Notes: generated by a model not told the origin, from the letters alone. A stretch of DNA of 64,000 nt from an uncultured Holophaga sp. (GCA_963664825.1 OY761614.1:2080001-2144000), one strand, 5' to 3'; shown: positions 4,594-40,293, numbered from the stretch's first letter. Program-made: numbers and translations.

Positions 4594-5942
4594 AGACGCG
4601 GGTCCGGAATGGTCGCCTTGTGCTCGAGGATCGCATCGAGCCCCTGGATATCCTGGTGGAAGACGGGCGCATCCTGGCCCTATTGCCTCCGGGGAGCGAG
4701 GCGGCTGCCGACCGCGTGATCGACGCCGCAGGGGGCTATGTCCTGCCGGGCTTCATCGATTTTCATGTGCACCTGGATGACCGCATCGGGCCCTTCTACC
4801 TGGCCGATACCTATGAGAGCGGCTCCCGGGTGGCCCTCCAAAATGGCATCACCACCCTCTGCAGCTTCGTCACCCAGGGGCCCGGGGAGACGCTGATCCA
4901 GGCCCTGAAGACGGCTCGGGCCAAGGCCGAGGGCCGAAGCCACGCCGATATATGCTGGCACCTCACGCCCACGCGCTTCGAGACGGAAGACTGGACGGAT
5001 CTCGAAGGCCTGGTGGCCGCGGGCTACGGGACGCTCAAGTTCTATACGACCTACAGGCCCGCGGGACTCTTCGCCTCCCGGGCGCGCCTGGACGAACTCT
5101 TCAGGCGTTTGGGCCCCCTGGGGGCGCGCTTCCTGGTGCATTGCGAGGACGACGCTTGGATGGCGGCGGTGGATGCCGGGGGCCTGGATCTCTCCAAACC
5201 CAGCTCCCACGGATCCCTCCGCCCTGAGCGGGCCGAACTCCTGGCCGTCGAGGCCCTGTTGGGTCTGGCCGCGGCCTCTCAAACCCCCCTCCATGTCGTC
5301 CATGTTTCGACCCTCGCCGCGGCCGAAGCGCTGCTGCGCGTCCGGGGCAAGCTCGATGTCACCTGCGAGACCTGTCCCCAGTATCTCTGGCTGGACGAGA
5401 CCTGGCTGGATCGCCCGGACGGCCATCGCTGGCTCTGTTCGCCGCCCCTGCGGGGAGACCGGGCGCGCTTTCGCGCCATGGCCCGGGCCGGAGCCTTCGA
5501 TTTCTTGGCCACGGATCACTGCGCCTTCCTCCGCCAGGATAAGGACGCTTGGGATCACCGGGATGTCCGCACGGCCGCCAACGGCCTCGGGGGCTTGGGC
5601 GCGCTGCCCCATCTCGCGTGGAAGCTCTGGGAGGACGACCCAGATCGCGCCGCCCTGGAATTGGCGAGGCGCTTGAGCCGCAACCCAGCTCGTTGCGCCG
5701 GACTGGAGGATCGCAAGGGTGCGATCCGTCCCGGCTGGGATGCCGATCTGGTGGTGCTGGATCCGGAGGGTCCCGAAAGGCCCCTGGTTTCTTCCCTGTC
5801 CGATGTCCACGAGACCTATCCGGGCTTCACCTCTCGGCTGGCCTTCCGCCATGTGCTGCTCCGGGGGGAGCCGGTCGTGGCCGACGGCAGGCTGCTTCAT
5901 CCCGAATCTCCAGCTGGGATCCTTCTCCAGCCTCAACCCTGA
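4590..5942 (+). CDS. Cyclic amidohydrolase (dihydropyrimidinase/hydantoinase-like, HyuA-type)
   Basis: PGFIDFHVH, LKFY (carboxylated Lys position), VHCED, VHVS, CETCPQY, SPPLR, ATDH, GWDADLV; ATGA overlap with upstream gene. Confidence 0.85.
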   Translation: MKTRVRNGRLVLEDRIEPLDILVEDGRILALLPPGSEAAADRVIDAAGGYVLPGFIDFHVHLDDRIGPFYLADTYESGSRVALQNGITTLCSFVTQGPGETLIQALKTARAKAEGRSHADICWHLTPTRFETEDWTDLEGLVAAGYGTLKFYTTYRPAGLFASRARLDELFRRLGPLGARFLVHCEDDAWMAAVDAGGLDLSKPSSHGSLRPERAELLAVEALLGLAAASQTPLHVVHVSTLAAAEALLRVRGKLDVTCETCPQYLWLDETWLDRPDGHRWLCSPPLRGDRARFRAMARAGAFDFLATDHCAFLRQDKDAWDHRDVRTAANGLGGLGALPHLAWKLWEDDPDRAALELARRLSRNPARCAGLEDRKGAIRPGWDADLVVLDPEGPERPLVSSLSDVHETYPGFTSRLAFRHVLLRGEPVVADGRLLHPESPAGILLQPQP

Positions 5943-19057: not shown

Positions 19058-19152
19058 ATCGCTCTCTCCCAAGGCCCTCCGAGTCCGGAGTGGCCCATCT
19101 TCAACGCAGTTCACCACAGCCGCTCTCGCGGCATTATTCAGGAGGCAACACC

Positions 19153-20526
19153 ATGAAGCGCAATCGTCTTCTCCTTGCCGCTCTGCCCATGGCGCTGGCG
19201 TGCGGGCCCATGTTCGCCCAGGACGTCTTCGAACTTCACGGCTACATGCGCGCAGGGGTCGGCCGCTCCTCCAATGGCGGTGAGCTTGCCAGCTTCTATA
19301 TGCCCGGCACCGTGGGCAATCCCTCGGGGGGCCCCGGATACCGCCTCGGCAACGAGGAGGATAACTACCTGGAACTGGCCATGGATGTGCGCGCCTACGA
19401 GAAGGGCTCCACGAGCTTCAAGCTCCACTTCCGTCCCACCTTCCGCCAATACAATGACGCTCGGGATGCCAGTACGGATGCCGGTGGGAACGTCGACAGC
19501 TCCCACTCCGCCACCCAGAACCAGATGGTCTACCTCCGGGAGGCCTGGGGCGAAGTGAACGGCATGCTCGGCAGCTCCGATATGCTCAAGGACGCCACCC
19601 TCTGGGCCGGGCGCCGTTTCTACCAGCGCCACGATTCCCATATGCTGGACTTCTACTACTGGAATAACAGCGGCGATGGCGTGGGCCTCGAGAACGTCAA
19701 CGTGGGTCTCGGGAAGTTTAGCTATGCCTACATCCAGGCCGACCGTAACAACGTGGATACCGGGTGGGGGACGGGCAACTTCCCGGGCAAGACTCAGACC
19801 GATGTATTCAACTACAACGGCAAGGTGCTCGTGGGCTCCCACGATCTCCGCTGGTCGGGCCTCTCCCCCTGGCAGGGTGCCTCCTTCACCCTGGGCTTCC
19901 AGTACAACGAACCCAGCAGGCGGAAGGGAACGGATACGCTCGTCTACAACAACATCGGTCGCCGCTTCCACATCGAGTATCAGCAGTCCAATATTCTCGG
20001 GGGCGACAACAAGCTCTACATCACCAAGGGCGATGGCTCCACCTTCTGGAACTGGTACAACCCCGAGTTGAACACCCATAACAACTGGTGGATGGTGATG
20101 GATAACCTCTTCCTCCAGCCCACGAAGCAGTTCGGGGTGGGAGTGGTGGCTGTGCATCGGGTCCAGAACGAGGACGATCGCCAGCCTGGCCATCGGGACA
20201 TGACCTGGAATTCCATCGGTGCCCGTCCCACCTGGTTCTTCAACGATCACATCAGCTTGGCTGCTGAGATTGGCTACGACCAGTTCAAGGTGAAGGGCGA
20301 CGGTTCCGGGGCCGATGGCCAGAACCGCAGCATGCTCAAGAAGACCCTGGCCCTCCAGTTCAGCCCCCAGGCGAGCTGGTGGTCCCGGCCCGTGCTGCGC
20401 CTCTTCGTCACTCGGGCCAATTGGAACAATTACGCCACGGCCTGGGGCACGCCCAGTGCCCTCGGCGTATTCAGTGGCTGCCAGGCCGGCACGACCGTTG
20501 GTGCTCAGGTCGAGGCCTGGTGGTAG
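19153..20526 (+). CDS. lamB: Maltoporin (LamB-family carbohydrate porin)
   Basis: GGAGG RBS, signal peptide; HGYMRAGVG, YRLGNE, LWAGRRFYQRHD, RPVLRLF, C-terminal GAQVEAWW. Confidence 0.9.
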   Translation: MKRNRLLLAALPMALACGPMFAQDVFELHGYMRAGVGRSSNGGELASFYMPGTVGNPSGGPGYRLGNEEDNYLELAMDVRAYEKGSTSFKLHFRPTFRQYNDARDASTDAGGNVDSSHSATQNQMVYLREAWGEVNGMLGSSDMLKDATLWAGRRFYQRHDSHMLDFYYWNNSGDGVGLENVNVGLGKFSYAYIQADRNNVDTGWGTGNFPGKTQTDVFNYNGKVLVGSHDLRWSGLSPWQGASFTLGFQYNEPSRRKGTDTLVYNNIGRRFHIEYQQSNILGGDNKLYITKGDGSTFWNWYNPELNTHNNWWMVMDNLFLQPTKQFGVGVVAVHRVQNEDDRQPGHRDMTWNSIGARPTWFFNDHISLAAEIGYDQFKVKGDGSGADGQNRSMLKKTLALQFSPQASWWSRPVLRLFVTRANWNNYATAWGTPSALGVFSGCQAGTTVGAQVEAWW

Positions 20527-20539
20527 TTCGCAGTTGAAT

Positions 20540-20570
20540 CCAGGCGCCCGAAGCCTCTTCGGGTGCCTGG
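20540..20570 (+). other. Intergenic stem-loop without U-tract after lamB
   Basis: ccaggcgcccgaag-cct-cttcgggtgcctgg. Confidence 0.6.
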
Positions 20571-20652
20571 GCTGTTGACCTTTGCGATTGGCGCTCGCCC
20601 GGGTACCCAATCCGTTCCGGGCGCTGGTCGCGAAATTCCAGCAGGAGCTTGA

Positions 20653-22320
20653 ATGAAGAAACAGGCAGTCATCTTCTCCTTTGCCATGTTGCTTGGCGGG
20701 ATGGGCTGTCTCAGCAATGGCGCCGCGAAGTATCAGCCCGATACTTCCACCCTCGCCCCCGGCCAGCAGATGGAGAACGGGGCGAACTGGTACAACGACG
20801 CGGTGATCTATCAGGTCTGGGTCAAGGCCTTCAGCGATGGCATCAAGGACGATGGCATCGGCGATCTGCCCGGGCTCAAGGGGCGTCTGGATTACCTCCA
20901 GACCCTCGGCATCAATACCATCTGGCTCTCCCCCATTTTCGAGTGCAGCTACAAGGGGGAGAACATGCATGGCTACGATACGGTGGACTACTACGCCATC
21001 AACGACCGCTTCGGCGGAAAGGCCGATCTCAAGAGCCTGCTCGACGACGCCCATGCCCGGGGCATGCGCGTCATCTTCGATTTCGTCCCCAACCATACCT
21101 CCACGGCCCACCCCTGGTTCACGGGGGCCTCGACCCGCGGCACATGGTATCTCTGGCAGCCTTCCATACCGTCCGGATGGGGCTATCCCTGGGGCGGTGG
21201 CTCCCCCAGCGATGTCTGGAAGAGCGGCGCCAATGGGTACTTCTACACCTCCTTCGGTGTGGATTCCATGGCGGACCTGAACTACTTTGAGCCCGCCGTT
21301 GTCTCCGAGATGCAGAACGTCCAGCGCTATTGGCTGGATCGCGGCTTCGATGGCATAAGGGTCGACGCCGTGCGCTACCTCTGTGAGACGGGTCCCGGTC
21401 AGGCCGCGGACCAGCCCGATACCCACGCCCGCCTGAAGGCCTTCCGCTCCGTGCTTGATGAATACGCCACCGGGAATGCCCATCCCCATCCTGGCGATGA
21501 CCCCGCCAAACACAGCGTGAAGATGATGATCGCCGAGGCCTGGACCGATAGTGCCTCCGGCATCACGCCCTACTATGGGAACGGCTCCGACGAATTCAAT
21601 ATGTGCCTGGATTTCAGTCATCCCTGGGCCGTCTACAACGCCATCAACACCCCCGACGCCACCCAGCTCACCAACCTGTGGGACTTCGAAAAATTGCACT
21701 ATCCCGCGGGCTACCGTTCCGCCACCTTCGATTCGAATCACGACAACCTGATCTCCCGCCCCGGCACCCAGTACGGAGGGGATGCCCGGCGCATCATCCT
21801 GGCTGAGGCCCTGAATGTGCTCTCGCCCGGCACACCGATCCTCTACTACGGCAACGAGATCGGGATGACGGGAACCAGCGGCACAGACCTGAATCTGCGG
21901 CAGCCCATGGACTGGAATGCCGTGGCCACCCAGTCCGCCCAGCCCGAATCGATCCTCAATTGGTGCCGCTATCTCATCCAGGCGCGCAACGCCTATCCGG
22001 CCCTCCGGGGCGCCTACAGCGTTCTGCAGACCGATCTTGGAACCGGCAAGGTGCTGGCCTACCTGCGGAGTTCTGGCAACGAGCGCATCATCGTCATCGC
22101 CAATCTCACGGCCTCCACCCAGTCCGCTGTCATCACGGGCCTGGACGCCGCTGGGATTCCGGCCGACGGCCCCGTTGGGGCCGTGATCGGAGACCCGAAG
22201 GGCGTCACGTCCCTGAGCGGCACCTCCTATTCCGTCCTCGATCTGCCCCCCTACGGTCTCCGCGTGCTCTACGCCACAGGCGGGGCCTTCAGGGGCACGC
22301 TCCACGGGGATCGCCCCTAG
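20653..22320 (+). CDS. Alpha-amylase family GH13 lipoprotein
   Basis: AGGAG RBS; lipobox-like GMGC; HGYDTVDY, VPNHTS, DGIRVDAV, IAEAW, SNHD, YYGNEIGM. Confidence 0.88.
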   Translation: MKKQAVIFSFAMLLGGMGCLSNGAAKYQPDTSTLAPGQQMENGANWYNDAVIYQVWVKAFSDGIKDDGIGDLPGLKGRLDYLQTLGINTIWLSPIFECSYKGENMHGYDTVDYYAINDRFGGKADLKSLLDDAHARGMRVIFDFVPNHTSTAHPWFTGASTRGTWYLWQPSIPSGWGYPWGGGSPSDVWKSGANGYFYTSFGVDSMADLNYFEPAVVSEMQNVQRYWLDRGFDGIRVDAVRYLCETGPGQAADQPDTHARLKAFRSVLDEYATGNAHPHPGDDPAKHSVKMMIAEAWTDSASGITPYYGNGSDEFNMCLDFSHPWAVYNAINTPDATQLTNLWDFEKLHYPAGYRSATFDSNHDNLISRPGTQYGGDARRIILAEALNVLSPGTPILYYGNEIGMTGTSGTDLNLRQPMDWNAVATQSAQPESILNWCRYLIQARNAYPALRGAYSVLQTDLGTGKVLAYLRSSGNERIIVIANLTASTQSAVITGLDAAGIPADGPVGAVIGDPKGVTSLSGTSYSVLDLPPYGLRVLYATGGAFRGTLHGDRP

Positions 22321-22420
22321 CATCCCATCAGCACCCAACCCATATTGAAGGCCCTTCCCGTTCCTCCCACCTGAAACTCGATTCCCGTTTTCCTTCATCG
22401 TTCTGCTCGGACCCACTCCC

Positions 22421-23524
22421 ATGGCCAACCTCCAATTCAAGGCACTGCGCAAATCCTTCGGCGAGGTCGAGATCCTCCACGGGATCGACCTGGAGATCCA
22501 GGATGGCGAGTTCATCGTGTTCGTGGGGCCCTCGGGCTGTGGCAAGTCCACGCTGCTGCGCTGCATCGCAGGGCTGGAGGAGATCACCGATGGCGAACTC
22601 CGCATCGGCGGGAAGGTGGTCAACGATGTGCCCCCTTCCAAGCGCGGCATCGCCATGGTGTTCCAGAGCTACGCGCTCTATCCGCACATGACGGTGAGCG
22701 ACAACATGGCCTTTGGCCTCAAGCTGGCCGGGCTGCCCAAGGAGAAGGTCGCCGCCGCAGTGGCGAGGGCCGCCCAGATCCTCCAGATCGAATCCCTCCT
22801 GGACCGCAAGCCCAAGGCCCTCTCCGGAGGCCAGCGCCAGCGCGTGGCCATCGGGCGGGCCATCGTCCGCAAGCCGGGCGTCTTCCTCTTCGACGAGCCC
22901 CTTTCGAACCTGGATGCCGCCCTGCGGGTCCAGATGCGGGTGGAGCTGGCTAGGCTCCACAACGAACTCAAGACCACCATGGTCTATGTCACCCACGATC
23001 AGGTGGAGGCTATGACCCTGGCCAATCGCATCGTGGTCATCAACCAGGGGCGCATCGAGCAGGTGGGCTCCCCCCTGGAGCTCTACCACCACCCGGCCAA
23101 TCTCTTCGTGGCGGGCTTCCTGGGATCTCCCAAGATGAACTTCCTGGAATGTGTCCTGGTTTCGGCCGATGAACGGGGAACCCTCGTGCGCCTTCCGGAC
23201 GGCAGCGAGATCTCGGTGTTGGCCGATGCGCGGGGCCTCAACGCGGGGGATCCCCTGAGTCTAGGCATCCGCCCCGAGCATATCCTCGCCGATGGGTCCG
23301 AAGCCGACCACGTGGTGCGCGGCCATGTGCAGGTGGCGGAGCATCTGGGCGACACCACCTTCCTCTATGTCCGGGTGGCCGGGGCCGAGGAGAACCTCAC
23401 CGTGAAGGCCAGCCCCGATAACACCCTGGGCATGGACGATATCGCCCAGCTCCACTTCCCCCCGCATCGCAGCTTCCTCTTCGATTGTCAGGGTCGGACC
23501 CTTCCGGCCATTCAACCCGTCTGA
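22421..23524 (+). CDS. malK: Sugar ABC transporter ATP-binding protein
   Basis: GPSGCGKS, LSGGQRQR, FLFDEPLSNLDAALR, YVTHDQ, C-terminal TOBE region. Confidence 0.92.
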   Translation: MANLQFKALRKSFGEVEILHGIDLEIQDGEFIVFVGPSGCGKSTLLRCIAGLEEITDGELRIGGKVVNDVPPSKRGIAMVFQSYALYPHMTVSDNMAFGLKLAGLPKEKVAAAVARAAQILQIESLLDRKPKALSGGQRQRVAIGRAIVRKPGVFLFDEPLSNLDAALRVQMRVELARLHNELKTTMVYVTHDQVEAMTLANRIVVINQGRIEQVGSPLELYHHPANLFVAGFLGSPKMNFLECVLVSADERGTLVRLPDGSEISVLADARGLNAGDPLSLGIRPEHILADGSEADHVVRGHVQVAEHLGDTTFLYVRVAGAEENLTVKASPDNTLGMDDIAQLHFPPHRSFLFDCQGRTLPAIQPV

Positions 23525-31229: not shown

Positions 31230-31447
31230 TCACCGCCAAGAACGCCAAGCATGGACAGTCCTCGACAGGGGGGATGGCACTCTCTTAGTGCGCTTCGAAG
31301 TGATCCCCTACATCCTCTTTCATCCTCGTTCAGGGCGTATTTGAACAGGGATGAGGGGGATGTGGTCTTCAGGGCCCGCGGCTTCTCCAGCAGGTTTTAT
31401 ATCCCTGTGAGCGTCACGCCTCCCGTCCCTTTGCGTTCTCAGCGTTC
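31230..31447. repeat. Mosaic of decayed REP-like inverted repeats
   Basis: Arm caccgccaagaacgccaag near 31231; hairpin catcctctttcatcctcgttca / tgaacagggatgagggggatg 31311-31362; partial arm cgtccctttgcgttctcagcgttc. Confidence 0.55.
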
Positions 31448-31560
31448 GCGTTCTTCTTTTTCCATCAGCGTCTGAGGCACCAGATATCTAGGGCGATGGC
31501 TGGGCCCATGAGGGTGACGAGGATGAAGAAGCCTCCGGTGAGGACGCGTTCCTTCATCTG
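31448..31560 (-). pseudogene. 113-bp degenerate duplicate of the rseP 3' end
   Basis: Matches 31669-31781 with 5 mismatches; reads QMKERVLTGGFFILVTLMGPAIALDIWCLRR* against QMKERILTGGFFILVTLMGLAIALDIWRLRR* in the gene. Confidence 0.9.
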
Positions 31561-31570
31561 ATCAGGAAAG

Positions 31571-31674
31571 GAACGAGCGCGAAGGCCGCGAAGGGGGCCG
31601 AGAGCGCGAAGAAATGAAGACAGCCAAGGCATTCCTGTTCGCGTCCCTTCGCTTCCTTAGCGCTCTTAGCGTTC
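31571..31674. repeat. REP-like imperfect inverted repeat between the two rseP 3' ends
   Basis: gaacgagcgcgaaggccgcgaaggg ... cccttcgcttccttagcgctcttagcgttc. Confidence 0.65.
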
Positions 31675-31685
31675 TTCTTTTTCCA

Positions 31686-32810
31686 TCAGCGTCTGAGGCG
31701 CCAGATATCCAGGGCGATGGCCAGGCCCATGAGGGTGACGAGGATGAAGAAGCCTCCGGTGAGGATGCGTTCCTTCATCTGGATGGAGAAGTCCTTCCGG
31801 CGCAGCTTCTCGGCGCAGAGGATGGCCATGTGTCCACCGTCCAGGACTGGGATGGGCAGGGCATTGAGCACCGCCAGGTTCACGGAGAGGAGGGCGCAGA
31901 GCAGGATGAAGCGCTCCCAGCCCGCCTTGGCCGCGTCGCTGCCCGCCCTGGCGATGGTGACGATGCCGCCCACCTGCTTGAAGCTGGTCCTGCAGGACAC
32001 CAGCTGCCAGAGGCCCTGGACCACCTGGATGCCCATGCTGCCGGTGACCAGTGCGCCTCCCAACGTGCCCCGGCCCAGATCCCGGAGGGTGATGGGGCGG
32101 CGTTCGAAGATCACCTTGGAAGGGCTGAAGGCGATGCCGATCCTGCCGACGCCATTCTCGTTCGCGGGAGTCACCGTCAGGTCGAGGAGCTTGCCGCCAC
32201 GGTCGATGCGGAGGGACAGGGGCTGTCCGGGATGCTTCTGGATGTAGGCCGTGGTTTCACTGGCCTCGCTGCCCGGGAAGCGCAGCTGGTCCATGGCCTG
32301 GATCTGGTCGCCGGACTGGAGGCCTGCCCGGGCCGCGGGGCTGCTGGGCATGACTTCGGCAACGGCCAGGGGGGAGGGCACGGGATGGACGGTGGCCCGG
32401 GATTGGTCCACCCCCAGGATGCAGAGGAGCACCAGGGCCGTGGCGATATTGGCCAGGATGCCCCCGGAGTAGAAGAGCATCCGCTTACCGAAGGGCTGCT
32501 GGAGGAAGCCGTGGGGGTCTTCGGCATCGGGCTCCTCGGGGTTGTAGCCCGCCAGCTTCACGTAGCCGCCCAGGGGCAGGATGGAGAGGCGCACATCGGT
32601 CTCCCGCCACCGGAAGCCCACCAGACGCTGGCCGAAACCCAGGGAAAAGACATCCACGGGCATGCCCATCCACTTGGCCATGAGGAAATGACCCAGCTCA
32701 TGCAGGAAGATCAGCCCGGCGATCATGATGATCGCGCCCAGGATCCCCACGGCCCTGGGGGATAGCGCGATAAGGGCGAGGGCCGGGGTGGCATAGAGAA
32801 AACGCTTCAT
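31686..32810 (-). CDS. rseP: RIP metalloprotease RseP (site-2 protease, M50, PDZ)
   Basis: AAGGA RBS before ATG 32810; HELGH, FSLGFG, LPLGGYV, PDZ (SPAARAGL), NALPIPVLDGGH. Confidence 0.93.
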   Translation of the reverse strand: MKRFLYATPALALIALSPRAVGILGAIIMIAGLIFLHELGHFLMAKWMGMPVDVFSLGFGQRLVGFRWRETDVRLSILPLGGYVKLAGYNPEEPDAEDPHGFLQQPFGKRMLFYSGGILANIATALVLLCILGVDQSRATVHPVPSPLAVAEVMPSSPAARAGLQSGDQIQAMDQLRFPGSEASETTAYIQKHPGQPLSLRIDRGGKLLDLTVTPANENGVGRIGIAFSPSKVIFERRPITLRDLGRGTLGGALVTGSMGIQVVQGLWQLVSCRTSFKQVGGIVTIARAGSDAAKAGWERFILLCALLSVNLAVLNALPIPVLDGGHMAILCAEKLRRKDFSIQMKERILTGGFFILVTLMGLAIALDIWRLRR

Positions 32811-32917
32811 GCGGGTCCTTGAAAACAAGAGGCCCACCGGAGCAGCGGCGGGCGATGGGACAAGGATATCAGGAGGGGGCGGCGTCTTTGGCCGGAAGAG
32901 TCCCAGGCCCCTTGGGG

Positions 32918-32950
32918 GACCGTTCAACCGGCCTGGGAGCCGTTCATCCG
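32918..32950 (+). promoter_or_regulatory. Putative LytTR-binding direct repeat
   Basis: ccgttcaaccg (32920) and ccgttcatccg (32940) upstream of the LytS kinase gene. Confidence 0.55.
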
Positions 32951-33024
32951 TGCGCCTCTCGCCCGGGGTCCAGGTTTCTTCCACGCTTGGACTTGCGCGG
33001 AATGCGCCCTAGCCTGGAGCAACC

Positions 33025-36847: not shown

Positions 36848-37534
36848 TCAGATCCCGCCGAAGCGGCGCTCGCGGACGGCATAGGCGGCCAGGGCCTCCC
36901 GCAGCTGGGGGCCGCGGAAGTCGGGCCAGAGGCATTCGGTGACGTAGAACTCGGCGTAGGCGGCCTGCCAGAGCAGGAAATTGGAGATGCGCATTTCCCC
37001 TGAGGTGCGGATGAGCAGGTCCACCTCGGGCGCATCCGCCGTCCAGAGGCGGGCCTGGAGGGCCTCCTCGGTCACTTCCTCGGCACGCAACCCGTCCTCG
37101 ATGCATCGTTGCGCCGCATGAGTGATCTCCAAGCGGCTGCCGTAATTGACCGCCAGGTGGAAGGTCATGCCCGTATGGGCGGCCGTGGAGGCTTCCAGCG
37201 CGCGGAGATCCCGCTGGATGCCTGCGGGCAGGCCTTCGAGGGCGCCCAGATGATGGAAGCGGATGTTCTTCTTTTGCAGCTTGGGCAGGAACATCCGGAG
37301 GTACATCCGCAGGAGGGCCATGAGTCCGGCCACCTCCAGGCTCGGCCGCTTCCAGTTCTCGGTGCTGAAGGCATAGAGTGACAGGTGCTGAATGCCCGCC
37401 TCCGCAGCGGCGTCCAACACCTCCTCCACGGCCCGCACGCCCTCCTTGTGCCCCTTGATTCGGGTCCAACCCCGCTGAGCCGCCCAGCGCCCGTTCCCGT
37501 CCATAATAATGGCTACGTGATTCGGCGCGCTCAT
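36848..37534 (-). CDS. uppS: Undecaprenyl diphosphate synthase
   Basis: PNHVAIIMDGNGRWA, YAFSTENWKR, VNYGSR, DLLIRTSGEMRISNFLLWQ, RERRFGG. Confidence 0.97.
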   Translation of the reverse strand: MSAPNHVAIIMDGNGRWAAQRGWTRIKGHKEGVRAVEEVLDAAAEAGIQHLSLYAFSTENWKRPSLEVAGLMALLRMYLRMFLPKLQKKNIRFHHLGALEGLPAGIQRDLRALEASTAAHTGMTFHLAVNYGSRLEITHAAQRCIEDGLRAEEVTEEALQARLWTADAPEVDLLIRTSGEMRISNFLLWQAAYAEFYVTECLWPDFRGPQLREALAAYAVRERRFGGI

Positions 37535-37801
37535 AGGGCCACCCCGCAGAAATCGCGCGTCCAAAGGCTTGGTGCTGAGGCTTCGCGTATGGCCGCAGGC
37601 CATACCGAAATAATGATGCCCACGTGGGCCGGAATACTCATCGCGGGATCCCTGCTCGTGGTTTAGAACCGCCCCGCGTGTAGGTCTCGGACATCCCCGC
37701 AGGGGATTCCGAGATAATGATGGAGACCTGATTCGGGACGCTCATCGCGGGCACCCCTCGGGGGGGCACCAGAAACTGGGCGATGTGGCCGGAAGGCTCA
37801 A
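37535..37801 (-). repeat. Tandem array of variant uppS 5'-end copies, each followed by a hairpin
   Basis: Copy at ATG 37641 reads MSIPAHVGII, copy at ATG 37745 reads MSVPNQVSII; decayed third copy near 37775-37801; 104-107 bp period. Confidence 0.8.
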
Positions 37802-37938
37802 GGGCAGGATCTCCGGGAAGCCCCTTTCAGGGGCCTGAGGGCTTGGACGAACGGGCGAATTCTAGCATGGGGGGCGGGGCCCCAGGGGGGGTGGGGAAAA
37901 TCCTGCTAGGCTGGAGAGATCACCCGGGACTTCCACCC

Positions 37939-40293
37939 ATGGTCCAATTCAACACGCGCGCTAACGAGATCCTGCTGAAACTGGTCTACTACGGCCCAGG
38001 GCTCTCGGGCAAGACGACCAACCTCCAGTCCCTGCACGCCATGTGCCAGGAAGTGCAGCGGGGCGAGCTGTTCTCCGTCAACACCCAGGAGGATCGCACC
38101 CTCTTCTTCGATCTGCTTCCCATCAATCTCGGCTACATCTACGGCAACGCCATCCACCTTCAGATCTACACGGTGCCCGGCCAGGTGCAGTACGACGCGA
38201 GTCGGCGGGTGGTGTTGGGCGGGGCCGACGGCGTGGTCTTCGTGGCCGATTCCAGCGAATCCAAGATGCAGGAGAATGTGGATTCCCTCTCGAATCTTTA
38301 CCACAACCTCAATGCGAACCGGCTGAACATCAAGCAGATCCCCTTCGTGCTGCAGTACAACAAACGGGATCTGGATGATGCCATGCCGGTGGGCGTGATG
38401 AACCGGCGGCTCAATTTCCGCTCGGTGCCCTTTTTCGAGGCCGTGGCGCCTCGGGGCACGGGCGTATTGGAGACCTTCCTGTCCATCACCAAGGACACGG
38501 TGGGCACCACCTTCAAGAAGTATCACCTGGACAAGAAGATCAAGGATTTCGACGAGATGCTCAATCTCATCGAGACCAATATCCGCTCCAGCATGCGGGA
38601 GCTCCCGGCTGCCGATCAGCTGCCCCTGCCTCGGCCCGAGAGCACCGTGCTGCGCCATAGCGATGTGAGCGTGGCCGATCTGACCCCCGGCAAGGTGGCC
38701 GATGCCCAGGAACTCCTGGAGGATGCCCTCAAGTCCAATATGGAGACGGCCCGTCTCTACAGCGAACTCAAGCAGACCAAGGAAGCCCTGGACAAGAAGG
38801 GCGAGGAGATGGCCACCCTCTTCAATCAGCTGGAGCGGGCCAACCAGGATAATCTCAAGACCCGTCGCTACCTGGAGGGGCTCATCCAGAGCGTAGGGGA
38901 AGCCATCATCTCCTTCAGCCACGATGGCCGGATCCTCACCTGGAATACGGCCGCCGAGCAGATCTTCGGGTATCCCCGCAGCGAGATCGTCGGCAGATCC
39001 TTCCAAATGCTCCTCCCTCCTTCCAAGGCCGGAGAACTGGAACAAGCCATCCTCCAGGTAGGCAAGGGGCAGGTCCTCCGGGATATCCCCAGCGTTCGTG
39101 TGCGCAAGGGAGGCCAGGAATTTCCGGCTTCGGTCACCTACGCACCCATCCGGGGCAGCGATGACCGGGTGCTGGCCTTCTCAGCCCTGGTGCGGGATGT
39201 GGGCGAACAACGGACGCTGGAACATAAGCTGGAACACGCCGAGACCAGTTCGAGCCTGGCCCGCATCATGCCGCCCCTCTTCAACGAACTGGCCAACCGC
39301 CTCGGCCCGGTCCTGCTCCAGAAGAGCCTGTTGCTGGAGATGACCCCGGATCCGGGCCAGCAACTCCGCATGTCCCGGCTCTTGCAGGGGGTGGACGCGT
39401 CCCAGAACCTGTTGCGCCCCCTCCTGATGGTGCTCTCGCCCTCCTCTCCCCGCCTCGAATCCACGAACGTGAATCTCCTGGTCCAGGAGGCTGCCAAGCG
39501 CGTGGAAGCCGAGGCCGCCGCCAGCGGTGTGGCCATGGATTTCACCATGGATCCCACGGTGCCGGATTGCGGATTGGATCCCGATATGGTTCGGGAGGCC
39601 CTGGTCAATCTCTTCCGCAGCGGGGTCTTCGCGGCGGCGAAATCCACCGTGAAGCGGGTTCGCGTGGGCACTCGGGTGGCTGGAAACATGATCCAGATCG
39701 TGAGCCAGGATACGGGCGATGCCATTCCCGAACCCGAACAGGGGCGGGTCTTCGATCTCTCCGCGGCTTTGGACATCGAGGCTCTGGGTCTCTGCACGGT
39801 GGCCACCGTGGTCCATGCCCACGGGGGTCGTGTCTCGGTGCGCAGTCAGGCCGGGGTCGGGAATGCCTTTCTCGTGGAGTTGCCCATGTCCGATGCCGCT
39901 CCAAAAACGAATGCCGAACCCTCCATGCAGGGGAAGAAGATCCTGGTGGTCGATGACGAAGCCTTCCTGCTGGAGTGTCTCGTCGATGCCATGGAGGCCT
40001 GGGGATGTGTCGTGACGCCCTGCGACCTGGCCGCCGAGGCCATCCAGAAGCTTCAGGTGGGTAGCTTCGATCTCATCGTCTCCGATATCCGGATGCCCGG
40101 CCTGAGCGGCATCCAACTCTTCCAGTGGATTGCCGAGTACCAGCCCGAGATGACCAAGAAGATCATCTTCACCACGGGGGATGCCTTCGATCCGGAGACC
40201 CGCACCTTCCTGGAGGAGGCCAAGCTGCCTCATCTGGGCAAGCCCTTCGATCTTAAGAAGATGAAACAGGCCATGGGGGACGTGCTCATTTAG
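37939..40293 (+). CDS. MglA-like small GTPase fused to coiled coil, PAS, degenerate histidine kinase and receiver domain
   Basis: KLVYYGPGLSGKTTN, DRTLFFD, YTVPGQV, QYNKRDL; PAS WNTAAEQIFGY; kinase-like FNELANRL / LVNL / DTG; REC VVDDE..SDIRMPG..KPF. Confidence 0.85.
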   Translation: MVQFNTRANEILLKLVYYGPGLSGKTTNLQSLHAMCQEVQRGELFSVNTQEDRTLFFDLLPINLGYIYGNAIHLQIYTVPGQVQYDASRRVVLGGADGVVFVADSSESKMQENVDSLSNLYHNLNANRLNIKQIPFVLQYNKRDLDDAMPVGVMNRRLNFRSVPFFEAVAPRGTGVLETFLSITKDTVGTTFKKYHLDKKIKDFDEMLNLIETNIRSSMRELPAADQLPLPRPESTVLRHSDVSVADLTPGKVADAQELLEDALKSNMETARLYSELKQTKEALDKKGEEMATLFNQLERANQDNLKTRRYLEGLIQSVGEAIISFSHDGRILTWNTAAEQIFGYPRSEIVGRSFQMLLPPSKAGELEQAILQVGKGQVLRDIPSVRVRKGGQEFPASVTYAPIRGSDDRVLAFSALVRDVGEQRTLEHKLEHAETSSSLARIMPPLFNELANRLGPVLLQKSLLLEMTPDPGQQLRMSRLLQGVDASQNLLRPLLMVLSPSSPRLESTNVNLLVQEAAKRVEAEAAASGVAMDFTMDPTVPDCGLDPDMVREALVNLFRSGVFAAAKSTVKRVRVGTRVAGNMIQIVSQDTGDAIPEPEQGRVFDLSAALDIEALGLCTVATVVHAHGGRVSVRSQAGVGNAFLVELPMSDAAPKTNAEPSMQGKKILVVDDEAFLLECLVDAMEAWGCVVTPCDLAAEAIQKLQVGSFDLIVSDIRMPGLSGIQLFQWIAEYQPEMTKKIIFTTGDAFDPETRTFLEEAKLPHLGKPFDLKKMKQAMGDVLI

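Follow-up and report, generated by a model that had tools for sequence, protein, structure and literature searches.

Why should the first codons of an essential gene stand several times over, head to tail, in front of that gene? The question is raised by a 64,000-nucleotide (nt) stretch of an uncultured Holophaga sp. (OY761614.1:2080001-2144000; here referred to as the window), which was placed in the Holophagaceae and amounts to 1.8% of a 3.47-Mb genome. The gene is uppS, the first of uppS-cdsA-dxr, and it encodes undecaprenyl diphosphate synthase. The enzyme is essential and supplies cell-wall synthesis with its lipid carrier; to our knowledge, the control of its level is poorly understood. 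A sequence-only reading of the window had described diverged copies of the uppS start upstream of the gene, each running into a hairpin, and had proposed that they are non-autonomous mobile units inserted serially at one site. We find the copies, their common end point and their hairpins to be much as described. As judged from sequence comparison, we favor, with moderate confidence, a different account of their nature: a tandem array that is bound to this locus, varies in copy number and serves the uppS-cdsA-dxr operon of Holophagaceae as a long leader, probably cis-regulatory and not transposable.

The uppS start on the minus strand at 37534 reads ATG AGC GCG CCG AAT CAC GTA GCC ATT ATT ATG and is preceded by the Shine-Dalgarno (SD)-like sequence GGGGTGG (duplex dG of -9.5). 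It places exactly 10 residues before MDGNGRWA, as do 105 of the 120 UppS relatives listed, which mostly begin M[ST]xPxHVA. The first 32 nt of the gene recur twice upstream (repeat family D1, three copies with spacings of 107 and 104 nt), reading MSIPAHVGII from 37641 (copy B) and MSVPNQVSII from 37745 (copy C) and matching the live copy at 22/32 and 26/32 positions, respectively. We compared these scores with 5,000 dinucleotide-preserving shuffles of the 406-nt region upstream of uppS, in which the best match averaged 15.5 (standard deviation, 1.04; maximum, 22). One shuffle reached 22 or more, none reached 26, and none gave both matches. A decayed third copy (copy D) starts at TTG 37801 on the minus strand. 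When 526 candidate starts of open reading frames (ORFs) of at least 150 amino acids (aa) in the window were examined in the same way, uppS was the sole true gene start with such copies upstream; other high-scoring starts, at about 31716 to 31758 on the plus strand, belong to a spurious ORF over the duplicated 3' end of an rseP-like gene.

Both clear copies end at ATTAT and pass directly into a hairpin. Each unit of about 105 bp (range, 104 to 110 bp) carries, as had been proposed, a start codon with the first 10 codons of uppS behind a purine-rich SD-like stretch; this start copy ends in the AU-rich sequence ATCATTAT, and a 12- to 13-bp hairpin, a spacer and the SD-like stretch of the next start follow. 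Tandem Repeats Finder misses the array because the copies are too diverged. The rare codons of the live start (ATT, 9% of Ile codons; GTA, 2% of Val codons) had also been offered as evidence of recoding. This argument does not hold, since they fit a general AT-rich bias of codons 2 to 11 in this genome: both are enriched in codons 2 to 11 of the window's genes at large (ATT, 7 of 40; GTA, 4 of 19), and the first 33 nt of the genes have a GC content of 57%, against 65% in the remainder.

We compared the locus with those of relatives, taking the best 80 of 599 confirmed relatives from a genome scan. When each uppS locus was searched with its own start, one alone stood out (28/32). This locus, L001, comes from a Holophagaceae metagenome-assembled genome (MAG) whose UppS is 84% identical to that of the window, and it has an array at the orthologous place, with starts at TTG 4784 and GTG 4894, a live GTG at 5001 and units of 110 and 107 nt. 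L002, from a Holophaga MAG with a UppS 76% identical, has no array, and its gene opens with a TTG AGC C... start about 50 nt after a TGCTAGAAT box. The same box and GGAG precede, and TTGAGCC opens, the first copy in both the window and L001. Because its position, box, GGAG and TTGAGCC all match the real start of L002, copy D is the ancestral start, stranded upstream; the suggestion that older starts have been displaced upstream is thus upheld. The other 78 loci, tested to look for similar arrays in other phyla, contained no extra start copies, and two with elevated scores (L037, 23/32; L014, 21/32) proved on inspection to be chance matches in GC-rich or coding sequence. The flanks of the array are syntenic, and identity to the window is equal on its two sides (84.6 and 84.2% for L001, 75.3 and 75.7% for L002). 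This equality indicates that uppS was not imported and rules out recombination of a foreign uppS allele into the locus.

More distant relatives of the upstream ORFs (uORFs) formed by the units were sought among database proteins. A word-index protein search with a 43-aa reading of the uORF region gave no match. An exhaustive search with a profile built from four uORF peptides returned 13 proteins at an E value of ≤0.001, and the enlarged alignment returned 26 at ≤0.1 from 946 candidates; the profile included the UppS-like start, and hairpins joined to other genes would score lower. The resulting set holds 27 ORFs that read M[ST]xPxHVAII[IF]-S[VA][WCS]Pxx[IM]RE[AT], with variable tails beyond. 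P0121 (1,073 aa, 15 repeats of about 66 aa, IAPHVTIIKN), which also matched the profile, is of doubtful relation and was not counted, and P0125 was set aside for its three in-frame units. Three units taken from the window and L001 bring the 27 ORFs to a set of 30 sequences. Within it, uORF length falls on 36 (15 sequences), 32 (9 sequences) or 35 (6 sequences) codons despite the differing tails, and the N-terminal 10-mer is the real N terminus of a UppS among the 120 relatives in 18 of the 30. Four metagenomic ORFs begin MLEFA and read on into units; since MLEFA is the translation of ATGCTAGAATTCGC, the -10 box itself, this links them to the uppS promoter. The number of units is not constant from one relative to the next, as had been anticipated: none in L002, at least one in P0148, two in L001, at least two in P0122, P0142 and P0147, three in the window and at least three in P0125. 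The last of these (165 aa) runs through three near-identical 37-aa units (...ILSVSPAAIRETSG...), which points to the recent in-frame amplification of an array in another genome.

The two hairpins of the window are 28 nt each, and neither was equaled in stability by any of 200 shuffles. They differ by compensatory GG/CC changes, and those of L001 read GTATGtCCC-GCG-GGCATgC and GTATGCCC-TTCG-GGCATAC. Pairing holds in 98% of the 51 pair cells across these four, both partners having changed in 3 of 13 pairs and one partner, compatibly, in 4; the pairing score was equaled in 8 of 500 shuffles, and controls in which the alignment was slid were at most 61% paired. The lower stem is conserved and the upper stem covaries. 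The equal end of the two clear copies and the covariation of the hairpin, both drawn from the sequence beforehand, are therefore confirmed. The 30 uORF peptides extend this count (L001 unit 1 was left out because an AAAAA insertion shifts the register of its hairpin). The residues that encode opposite sides of the stem occur as C-G (14 peptides), S-G (8), W-A (5), S-R (2) and P-G (1), and the combinations W-G and C-A occur in none of the 30; a second pair is V-I in 21, A-M in 4, V-M (a wobble) in 2 and other combinations in 3. With third codon positions inferred, these residues correspond to GUAUGGCC/GGCCAUAC, GUAUGCCC/GGGCAUAC, GUAUCCCC/GGGGAUAC and GCAU.../...AUGC. Because radical replacements among W, C and S are tolerated while pairing holds, the constraint lies on the structure of the hairpin and not on the peptide. 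A CGCGAAGCC-type sequence follows the hairpins, and every start, the ancestral one included, has a hairpin upstream. The uORF opened by copy D lacks the family hairpin and has a GC hairpin of its own at 37750 to 37771; before copy D, the 5' untranslated region (UTR) holds a hairpin at 37819 to 37835 and the GGAG at 37811 to 37814.

Homology of the 72- to 78-nt spacers extends across units and across species (z scores of 35, 20 and 37 in local alignment). The last spacer, before uppS, is identical between the window and L001 at 62 of 75 positions (83%) without gaps. For comparison, the uppS genes of the two agree at 57 of 106 four-fold sites (54%) and 137 of 229 third codon positions (60%), and their 5' UTRs are 64% identical with many gaps. 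The 13 differences in the spacer, read by eye, are mostly non-synonymous in all three frames; no frame looks protein constrained, which speaks against a coding constraint and places the constraint on the nucleic acid. The units are also mosaics. Window unit C has a start and a hairpin like those of L001 unit 2 (27/32 and 23/30), the 3' spacer of window unit B is orthologous to that of L001 (38/45), and the two 3' spacers of L001 are 43/45 identical to each other, a pattern that fits unequal crossing-over and conversion. In its head-to-tail order, single phase, variable number and homogenized paralogues, the locus has the hallmarks of a tandem array.

The units also share features with coupled cistrons. 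A start codon is kept in all five upstream copies of the window and L001 (TTG, ATG, ATG, TTG and GTG). The lengths of the five units (56, 104, 107, 110 and 107 nt) all leave a remainder of two when divided by three, so that the stop codon of each uORF overlaps the next start, as ATGA in the window and as TAGTG in L001, where the uORF stops are TAG. An SD-like sequence precedes each start, with duplex energies of -5.2 to -10.5 kcal/mol. The two features that define coupled uORFs, a start with an SD and a stop overlapping the next start, are thus present in five of five copies.

We propose that the array arose from a single ancient junction, by which a spacer and a new start would have come to lie behind the ancestral TTG. 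Unit number would then shift through unequal homologous recombination, and gene conversion from the live start, itself constrained by the protein, would keep the upstream copies UppS-like. On this account all copies would end at one base. In the leader so formed, transcription would begin at the conserved TGCTAGAAT promoter, ribosomes would load both at the ancestral start nearest the promoter and at the internal copies, and the short uORFs would be translated, their overlapping stops handing ribosomes on to uppS by termination-reinitiation. The hairpin, selected as a structure, may throttle or time this flow of ribosomes or may stabilize the message. A bolder version of the proposal, which we hold only tentatively, is that the units are self-mimicking start modules: decoy ribosome-loading sites that carry the first ten codons of the gene, are locked by hairpins and are tuned in number by recombination, such that ribosome traffic, or a factor recognizing the uppS start, could set the level of UppS.

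Several observations weigh against a translated, regulatory leader. The SD-like scores are only modestly above those of random 24-mers (mean, -4.9; 35% at -6 or lower), and the open uORF frames are weak evidence, as shuffled sequences are open 40 to 72% of the time. Folds of the whole leader show no consistent structure beyond the hairpins (z scores of -1.45 and -0.83). RNAalifold does pair uORF codons 2 to 4 with the next SD, in a helix that barely covaries. The stop-start rule is broken in P0122, which reads through two units in frame, and in P0125, whose three in-frame units lack start codons. The spacer shows no similarity to the uppS coding sequence or 5' UTR (z scores of -0.7 to 0.8 against shuffles) or to the other sequences searched. 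A derivation from decayed uppS codons 11 to 35 or from a duplicated 5' UTR is accordingly undetectable, and the first junction was not a simple duplication of extant sequence. Finally, the 27 database uORFs are known as proteins only, with their genomic context inferred from their own sequence. The whole-leader folds gave no consistent picture of SD accessibility. A scan for consensus sigma-70 promoters found nothing, either inside the units or at the TGCTAGAAT box.

The proposal from which we started, a hairpin-guided mini-element resembling repetitive extragenic palindromic (REP) sequences or miniature inverted-repeat transposable elements that repeatedly inserts at one site in uppS with a replacement ribosome-binding site and first 10 codons, could draw on the sharp junction, identical in all units, on a spacer that has no detectable local source and on a hairpin with a conserved lower and a covarying upper stem. 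A covariance model of hairpin and spacer found the two known units alone in the window (E values of 1.9e-25 and 9.2e-18), the next match (E = 0.056) being a 26-nt stretch inside a coding region; in the 745,566 bases of the 80 uppS loci, including the flanks in L001 and L002, it found only the two L001 units. An nhmmer search agreed, with no further copies in the window or the relatives' loci, and blastn against plasmids gave no match. A Pfam scan of the 54 window proteins revealed no transposase, integrase or Y1 (RAYT/TnpA) domain, so that the recombinase gene expected beside the hairpin is lacking among them, and the GTAG read as a REP signature adjoins only one of the four hairpins (that of window unit C). 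A second duplicated gene end does lie 6 kb away, at the 3' end of the rseP-like gene, but the expected association of the hairpin with other duplicated gene ends is not seen, there being no other copy of the hairpin in the window. Relatives do differ in unit number, as insertion would allow; yet the spacers of different units copy one another, as amplification predicts, and all 27 database relatives carry the UppS N terminus, four of them tied to the uppS promoter. Every related copy found lies at uppS and behind its promoter, and the common end point of the copies is explained more simply by one junction with unequal crossing-over than by repeated site-specific insertion. In the window and the 80 loci, then, mobility is unsupported. 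A low-copy family may exist elsewhere in the genome, since the window is the part of it that was searched, and we regard the mini-element as the least probable of the readings considered here. Nor do the units fall into a known mobile class. REP/RAYT systems have many dispersed extragenic copies, a conserved GTAG/GGAG at the hairpin foot and a cognate Y1 gene; the window shows neither further copies nor such a gene, and GTAG is not conserved among the four hairpins. IS200/IS605 mini-elements have subterminal hairpins at both ends and several insertion sites, unlike the one conserved hairpin per unit and the single locus seen in the window and the 80 loci. Integron attC sites measure at least about 57 nt, contain R and L boxes and a GTTRRRY core and are used by an IntI integrase; the hairpin here is 28 nt, the junction ATTAT|YTCGG has no GTT core and the window proteins include no integrase. 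A diversity-generating retroelement was dismissed because differences between copies extend beyond adenines and the window proteins include no reverse transcriptase.

Three further explanations leave the array in place and assign it another role, or none. It could be a module for mRNA processing or stability, in which an endonuclease would cut at the AU-rich end of each start copy, the hairpin would protect the processed 5' end of a uppS message that has its own SD and start, and the uORFs would be incidental. Selection on the hairpin as a structure, its presence before each start, including the ancestral one, and the rare-codon ATCATTAT kept directly 5' of it in every copy all suit this idea, which leaves the start codons, the unit lengths and the overlapping stops unaccounted for and can explain the UppS-likeness of the first 25 nt only by gene conversion; we consider it unlikely. 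Less likely again is a stalling attenuator of the erm/cat type, in which a ribosome pausing on the shared ...HVAII[IF]S peptide, or at the Ile codons where the hairpin begins, would melt the hairpin and change downstream pairing, switching uppS on or off. Its architecture, a leader ORF with a hairpin from codon 11 or 12, matches, the N-terminal peptide is conserved, and codons 9 to 11 are Ile-Ile-Ile/Phe in 27 of the 30 uORFs. Descent and conversion from uppS explain that conservation, however, and no conserved alternative pairing was found for the 3' arm, its candidate partner at the next SD failing to covary. The folds contained no consistent SD-hiding helix, with only four DNA units available for covariation outside the hairpin. 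A termination variant, which as an intrinsic terminator or classical attenuator would combine a GC hairpin with a U-tract, fares no better: no terminator-like site was found between 37300 and 38100, and no U-tract follows the hairpins. The array might, lastly, be a functionless relic, an old tandem duplication drifting neutrally and tolerated because the last copy keeps a working start. Copy number does vary down to the absence of the array in L002, copy D is decayed, starts or stops are lost in P0122 and P0125, and the fold of the whole leader is not unusual. Against neutral drift stand the spacer, 83% identical where neutral sites are at 54%, the pairing kept through several compensatory states in 30 sequences and the persistence of the array in relatives whose UppS is as little as about 74% identical, and we find it hard to credit that the array has no function.

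The favored reading, a locus-bound regulatory leader, can be set beside known systems. Leader-peptide translation attenuation is exemplified by ermC and cat, and phages and islands that integrate in the 3' ends of tRNA genes or icd restore the gene end that they split. The latter resemble the array in leaving displaced, diverged copies of a terminus beside the live one, with one junction; the array differs in its geneless insert of about 75 nt, in units that copy one another, in the lack of an integrase among the window proteins and in affecting a 5' end. REP sequences, bacterial interspersed mosaic elements and IS200/IS605 mini-elements share with the units a short imperfect palindrome, a covarying stem and an intergenic array, whereas the units run in one orientation with a 105-bp period, lack a conserved GTAG and a hairpin at a second end, and are accompanied by neither a Y1 gene in the window nor other copies in the sequence searched. 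Ordinary tandem repeats are likewise head to tail and variable in number, with homogenized paralogues such as the 3' parts of the L001 spacers; unlike them, the uppS unit includes a translation start within it and is maintained by purifying selection. The ermC and cat leaders resemble the uppS leader in having, ahead of the regulated start, a short leader ORF that leads into a stable hairpin, and the uORF-controlled mgtCBR genes of Salmonella (PMC8092293) belong beside them. The uppS leader differs from these in that no SD-hiding alternative hairpin was found, the peptide copies the N terminus of the regulated protein and the modules are repeated. Coupled leader cistrons, known in engineered form as the bicistronic design (PMC5995908), share with it a short upstream ORF with its own SD, a stop overlapping the gene start and the SD of the gene inside the ORF. 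Here, by contrast, two or three such ORFs stand in series, carry the gene's own first 10 codons, enclose a hairpin conserved in structure and vary in number between species. By analogy, the uppS leader would work most like coupled leader cistrons and, less surely, like erm/cat attenuation leaders.

A full-text literature search, as judged on the opening lines of abstracts, returned no description of a leader of this kind. In Rfam 15 the sole match was whalefall-1, which scored 12.1 bits (E = 6.1) where the gathering score is 37. The locus thus presents a conserved structured leader that is unmatched in Rfam, is built from the start of its own gene and is found in many uncultured and cultured-family relatives. 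Its natural series of zero to at least three modules offers material for testing whether expression can be set by serial termination-reinitiation combined with a hairpin inside the uORF. It also bears on how tandem duplication across the start of an essential gene is tolerated and recruited for function.

Features of the uppS start region, in window coordinates
Feature	Position	Strand	Basis or remark
uppS coding sequence, 228 aa, undecaprenyl diphosphate synthase	36848..37534	-	Translation; Pfam Prenyltransf, E = 9.7e-80
X_A, live 32-nt start module (start codon + 10 codons + AT)	37503..37534	-	Reference copy of repeat family D1
uORF B, 36 codons, MSIPAHVGIIISVWPAAIREASAPSLWTRDFCGVAL	37531..37641	-	Contains X_B (37610-37641); TGA overlaps uppS ATG (ATGA)
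Hairpin B, TTCGGTATGGCC-TGC-GGCCATACGCGAA	37582..37609	-	dG -17.2 kcal/mol, z = -4.1
uORF C, 35 codons, MSVPNQVSIIISESPAGMSETYTRGGSKPRAGIPR	37638..37745	-	Contains X_C (37714-37745); TGA overlaps uORF B ATG
Hairpin C, CTCGGAATCCCC-TGC-GGGGATGTCCGAG	37686..37713	-	dG -20.2 kcal/mol, z = -5.0
uORF D, decayed ancestral start TTG AGC CTT CCG, 19 codons	37742..37801	-	TGA overlaps uORF C ATG
Putative uppS promoter (-10 box TGCTAGAAT, 37859-37867) and 5' UTR	37802..37867	-	Box conserved in window, L001 and L002
Divergent neighbor, 784 aa, Ras/MglA-like GTPase + PAS + HATPase (histidine-kinase ATPase) + receiver	37939..40293	+	Pfam

The locus also carries a caution for annotation: gene callers begin uppS at three sites, giving proteins of 228 aa, 218 aa (from Met11) or about 251 aa (from an ATG inside the hairpin). 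The last of these, ATG 37603 on the minus strand, lies in the 5' arm of hairpin B and is in frame with uppS, yielding a 251-aa ORF; the same holds in L001, and a 253-aa UppS call (P0013) uses the equivalent codon, with the hairpin read in the uppS frame (MAFGHTRDF...). We rejected this start, which has no SD (-2.6 kcal/mol) and conflicts with the 10 residues that precede MDGNGRWA in most relatives. The Met11 start (MDGNGRWAA), at the codon where the repeat ends, is annotated in 14 of the 120 closest UppS relatives (P0011, P0040, P0058, P0069, P0072, P0079, P0085, P0087, P0088, P0093, P0094, P0102, P0117 and P0118) and would cost the protein its first beta-strand; the upstream array has probably misled the gene callers here.

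The divergent 784-aa neighbor bounds the intergenic region, is not part of the array and is syntenic beside uppS in both L001 and L002. Elsewhere in the window, a 116-nt direct repeat (31445 to 31560 and 31666 to 31781; 95% identity, at a distance of 221 nt) copies the final ~32 codons, the stop codon and the following 20 nt of the rseP-like M50 protease gene (31686 to 32984, minus strand), and a 55-aa ORF (31465 to 31632, minus strand) shares its final 33 residues with that protease. GCGAAG/CTTCGC inverted repeats abound in the spacer between its two copies. The beginning of that spacer is resembled once more by about 25 nt that follow the second copy, and about 80 nt are unmatched filler. 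The whole looks like a recent partial tandem duplication across the 3' end of the gene. The 13- to 31-kb part of the window is a maltodextrin-utilization cluster. Within it, a minus-strand ORF of 1,172 aa (19138 to 22656; third-position GC content of 0.60, no Pfam match) overlaps plus-strand LamB-porin and alpha-amylase genes and, lying antisense in a GC-rich genome, is most likely spurious.

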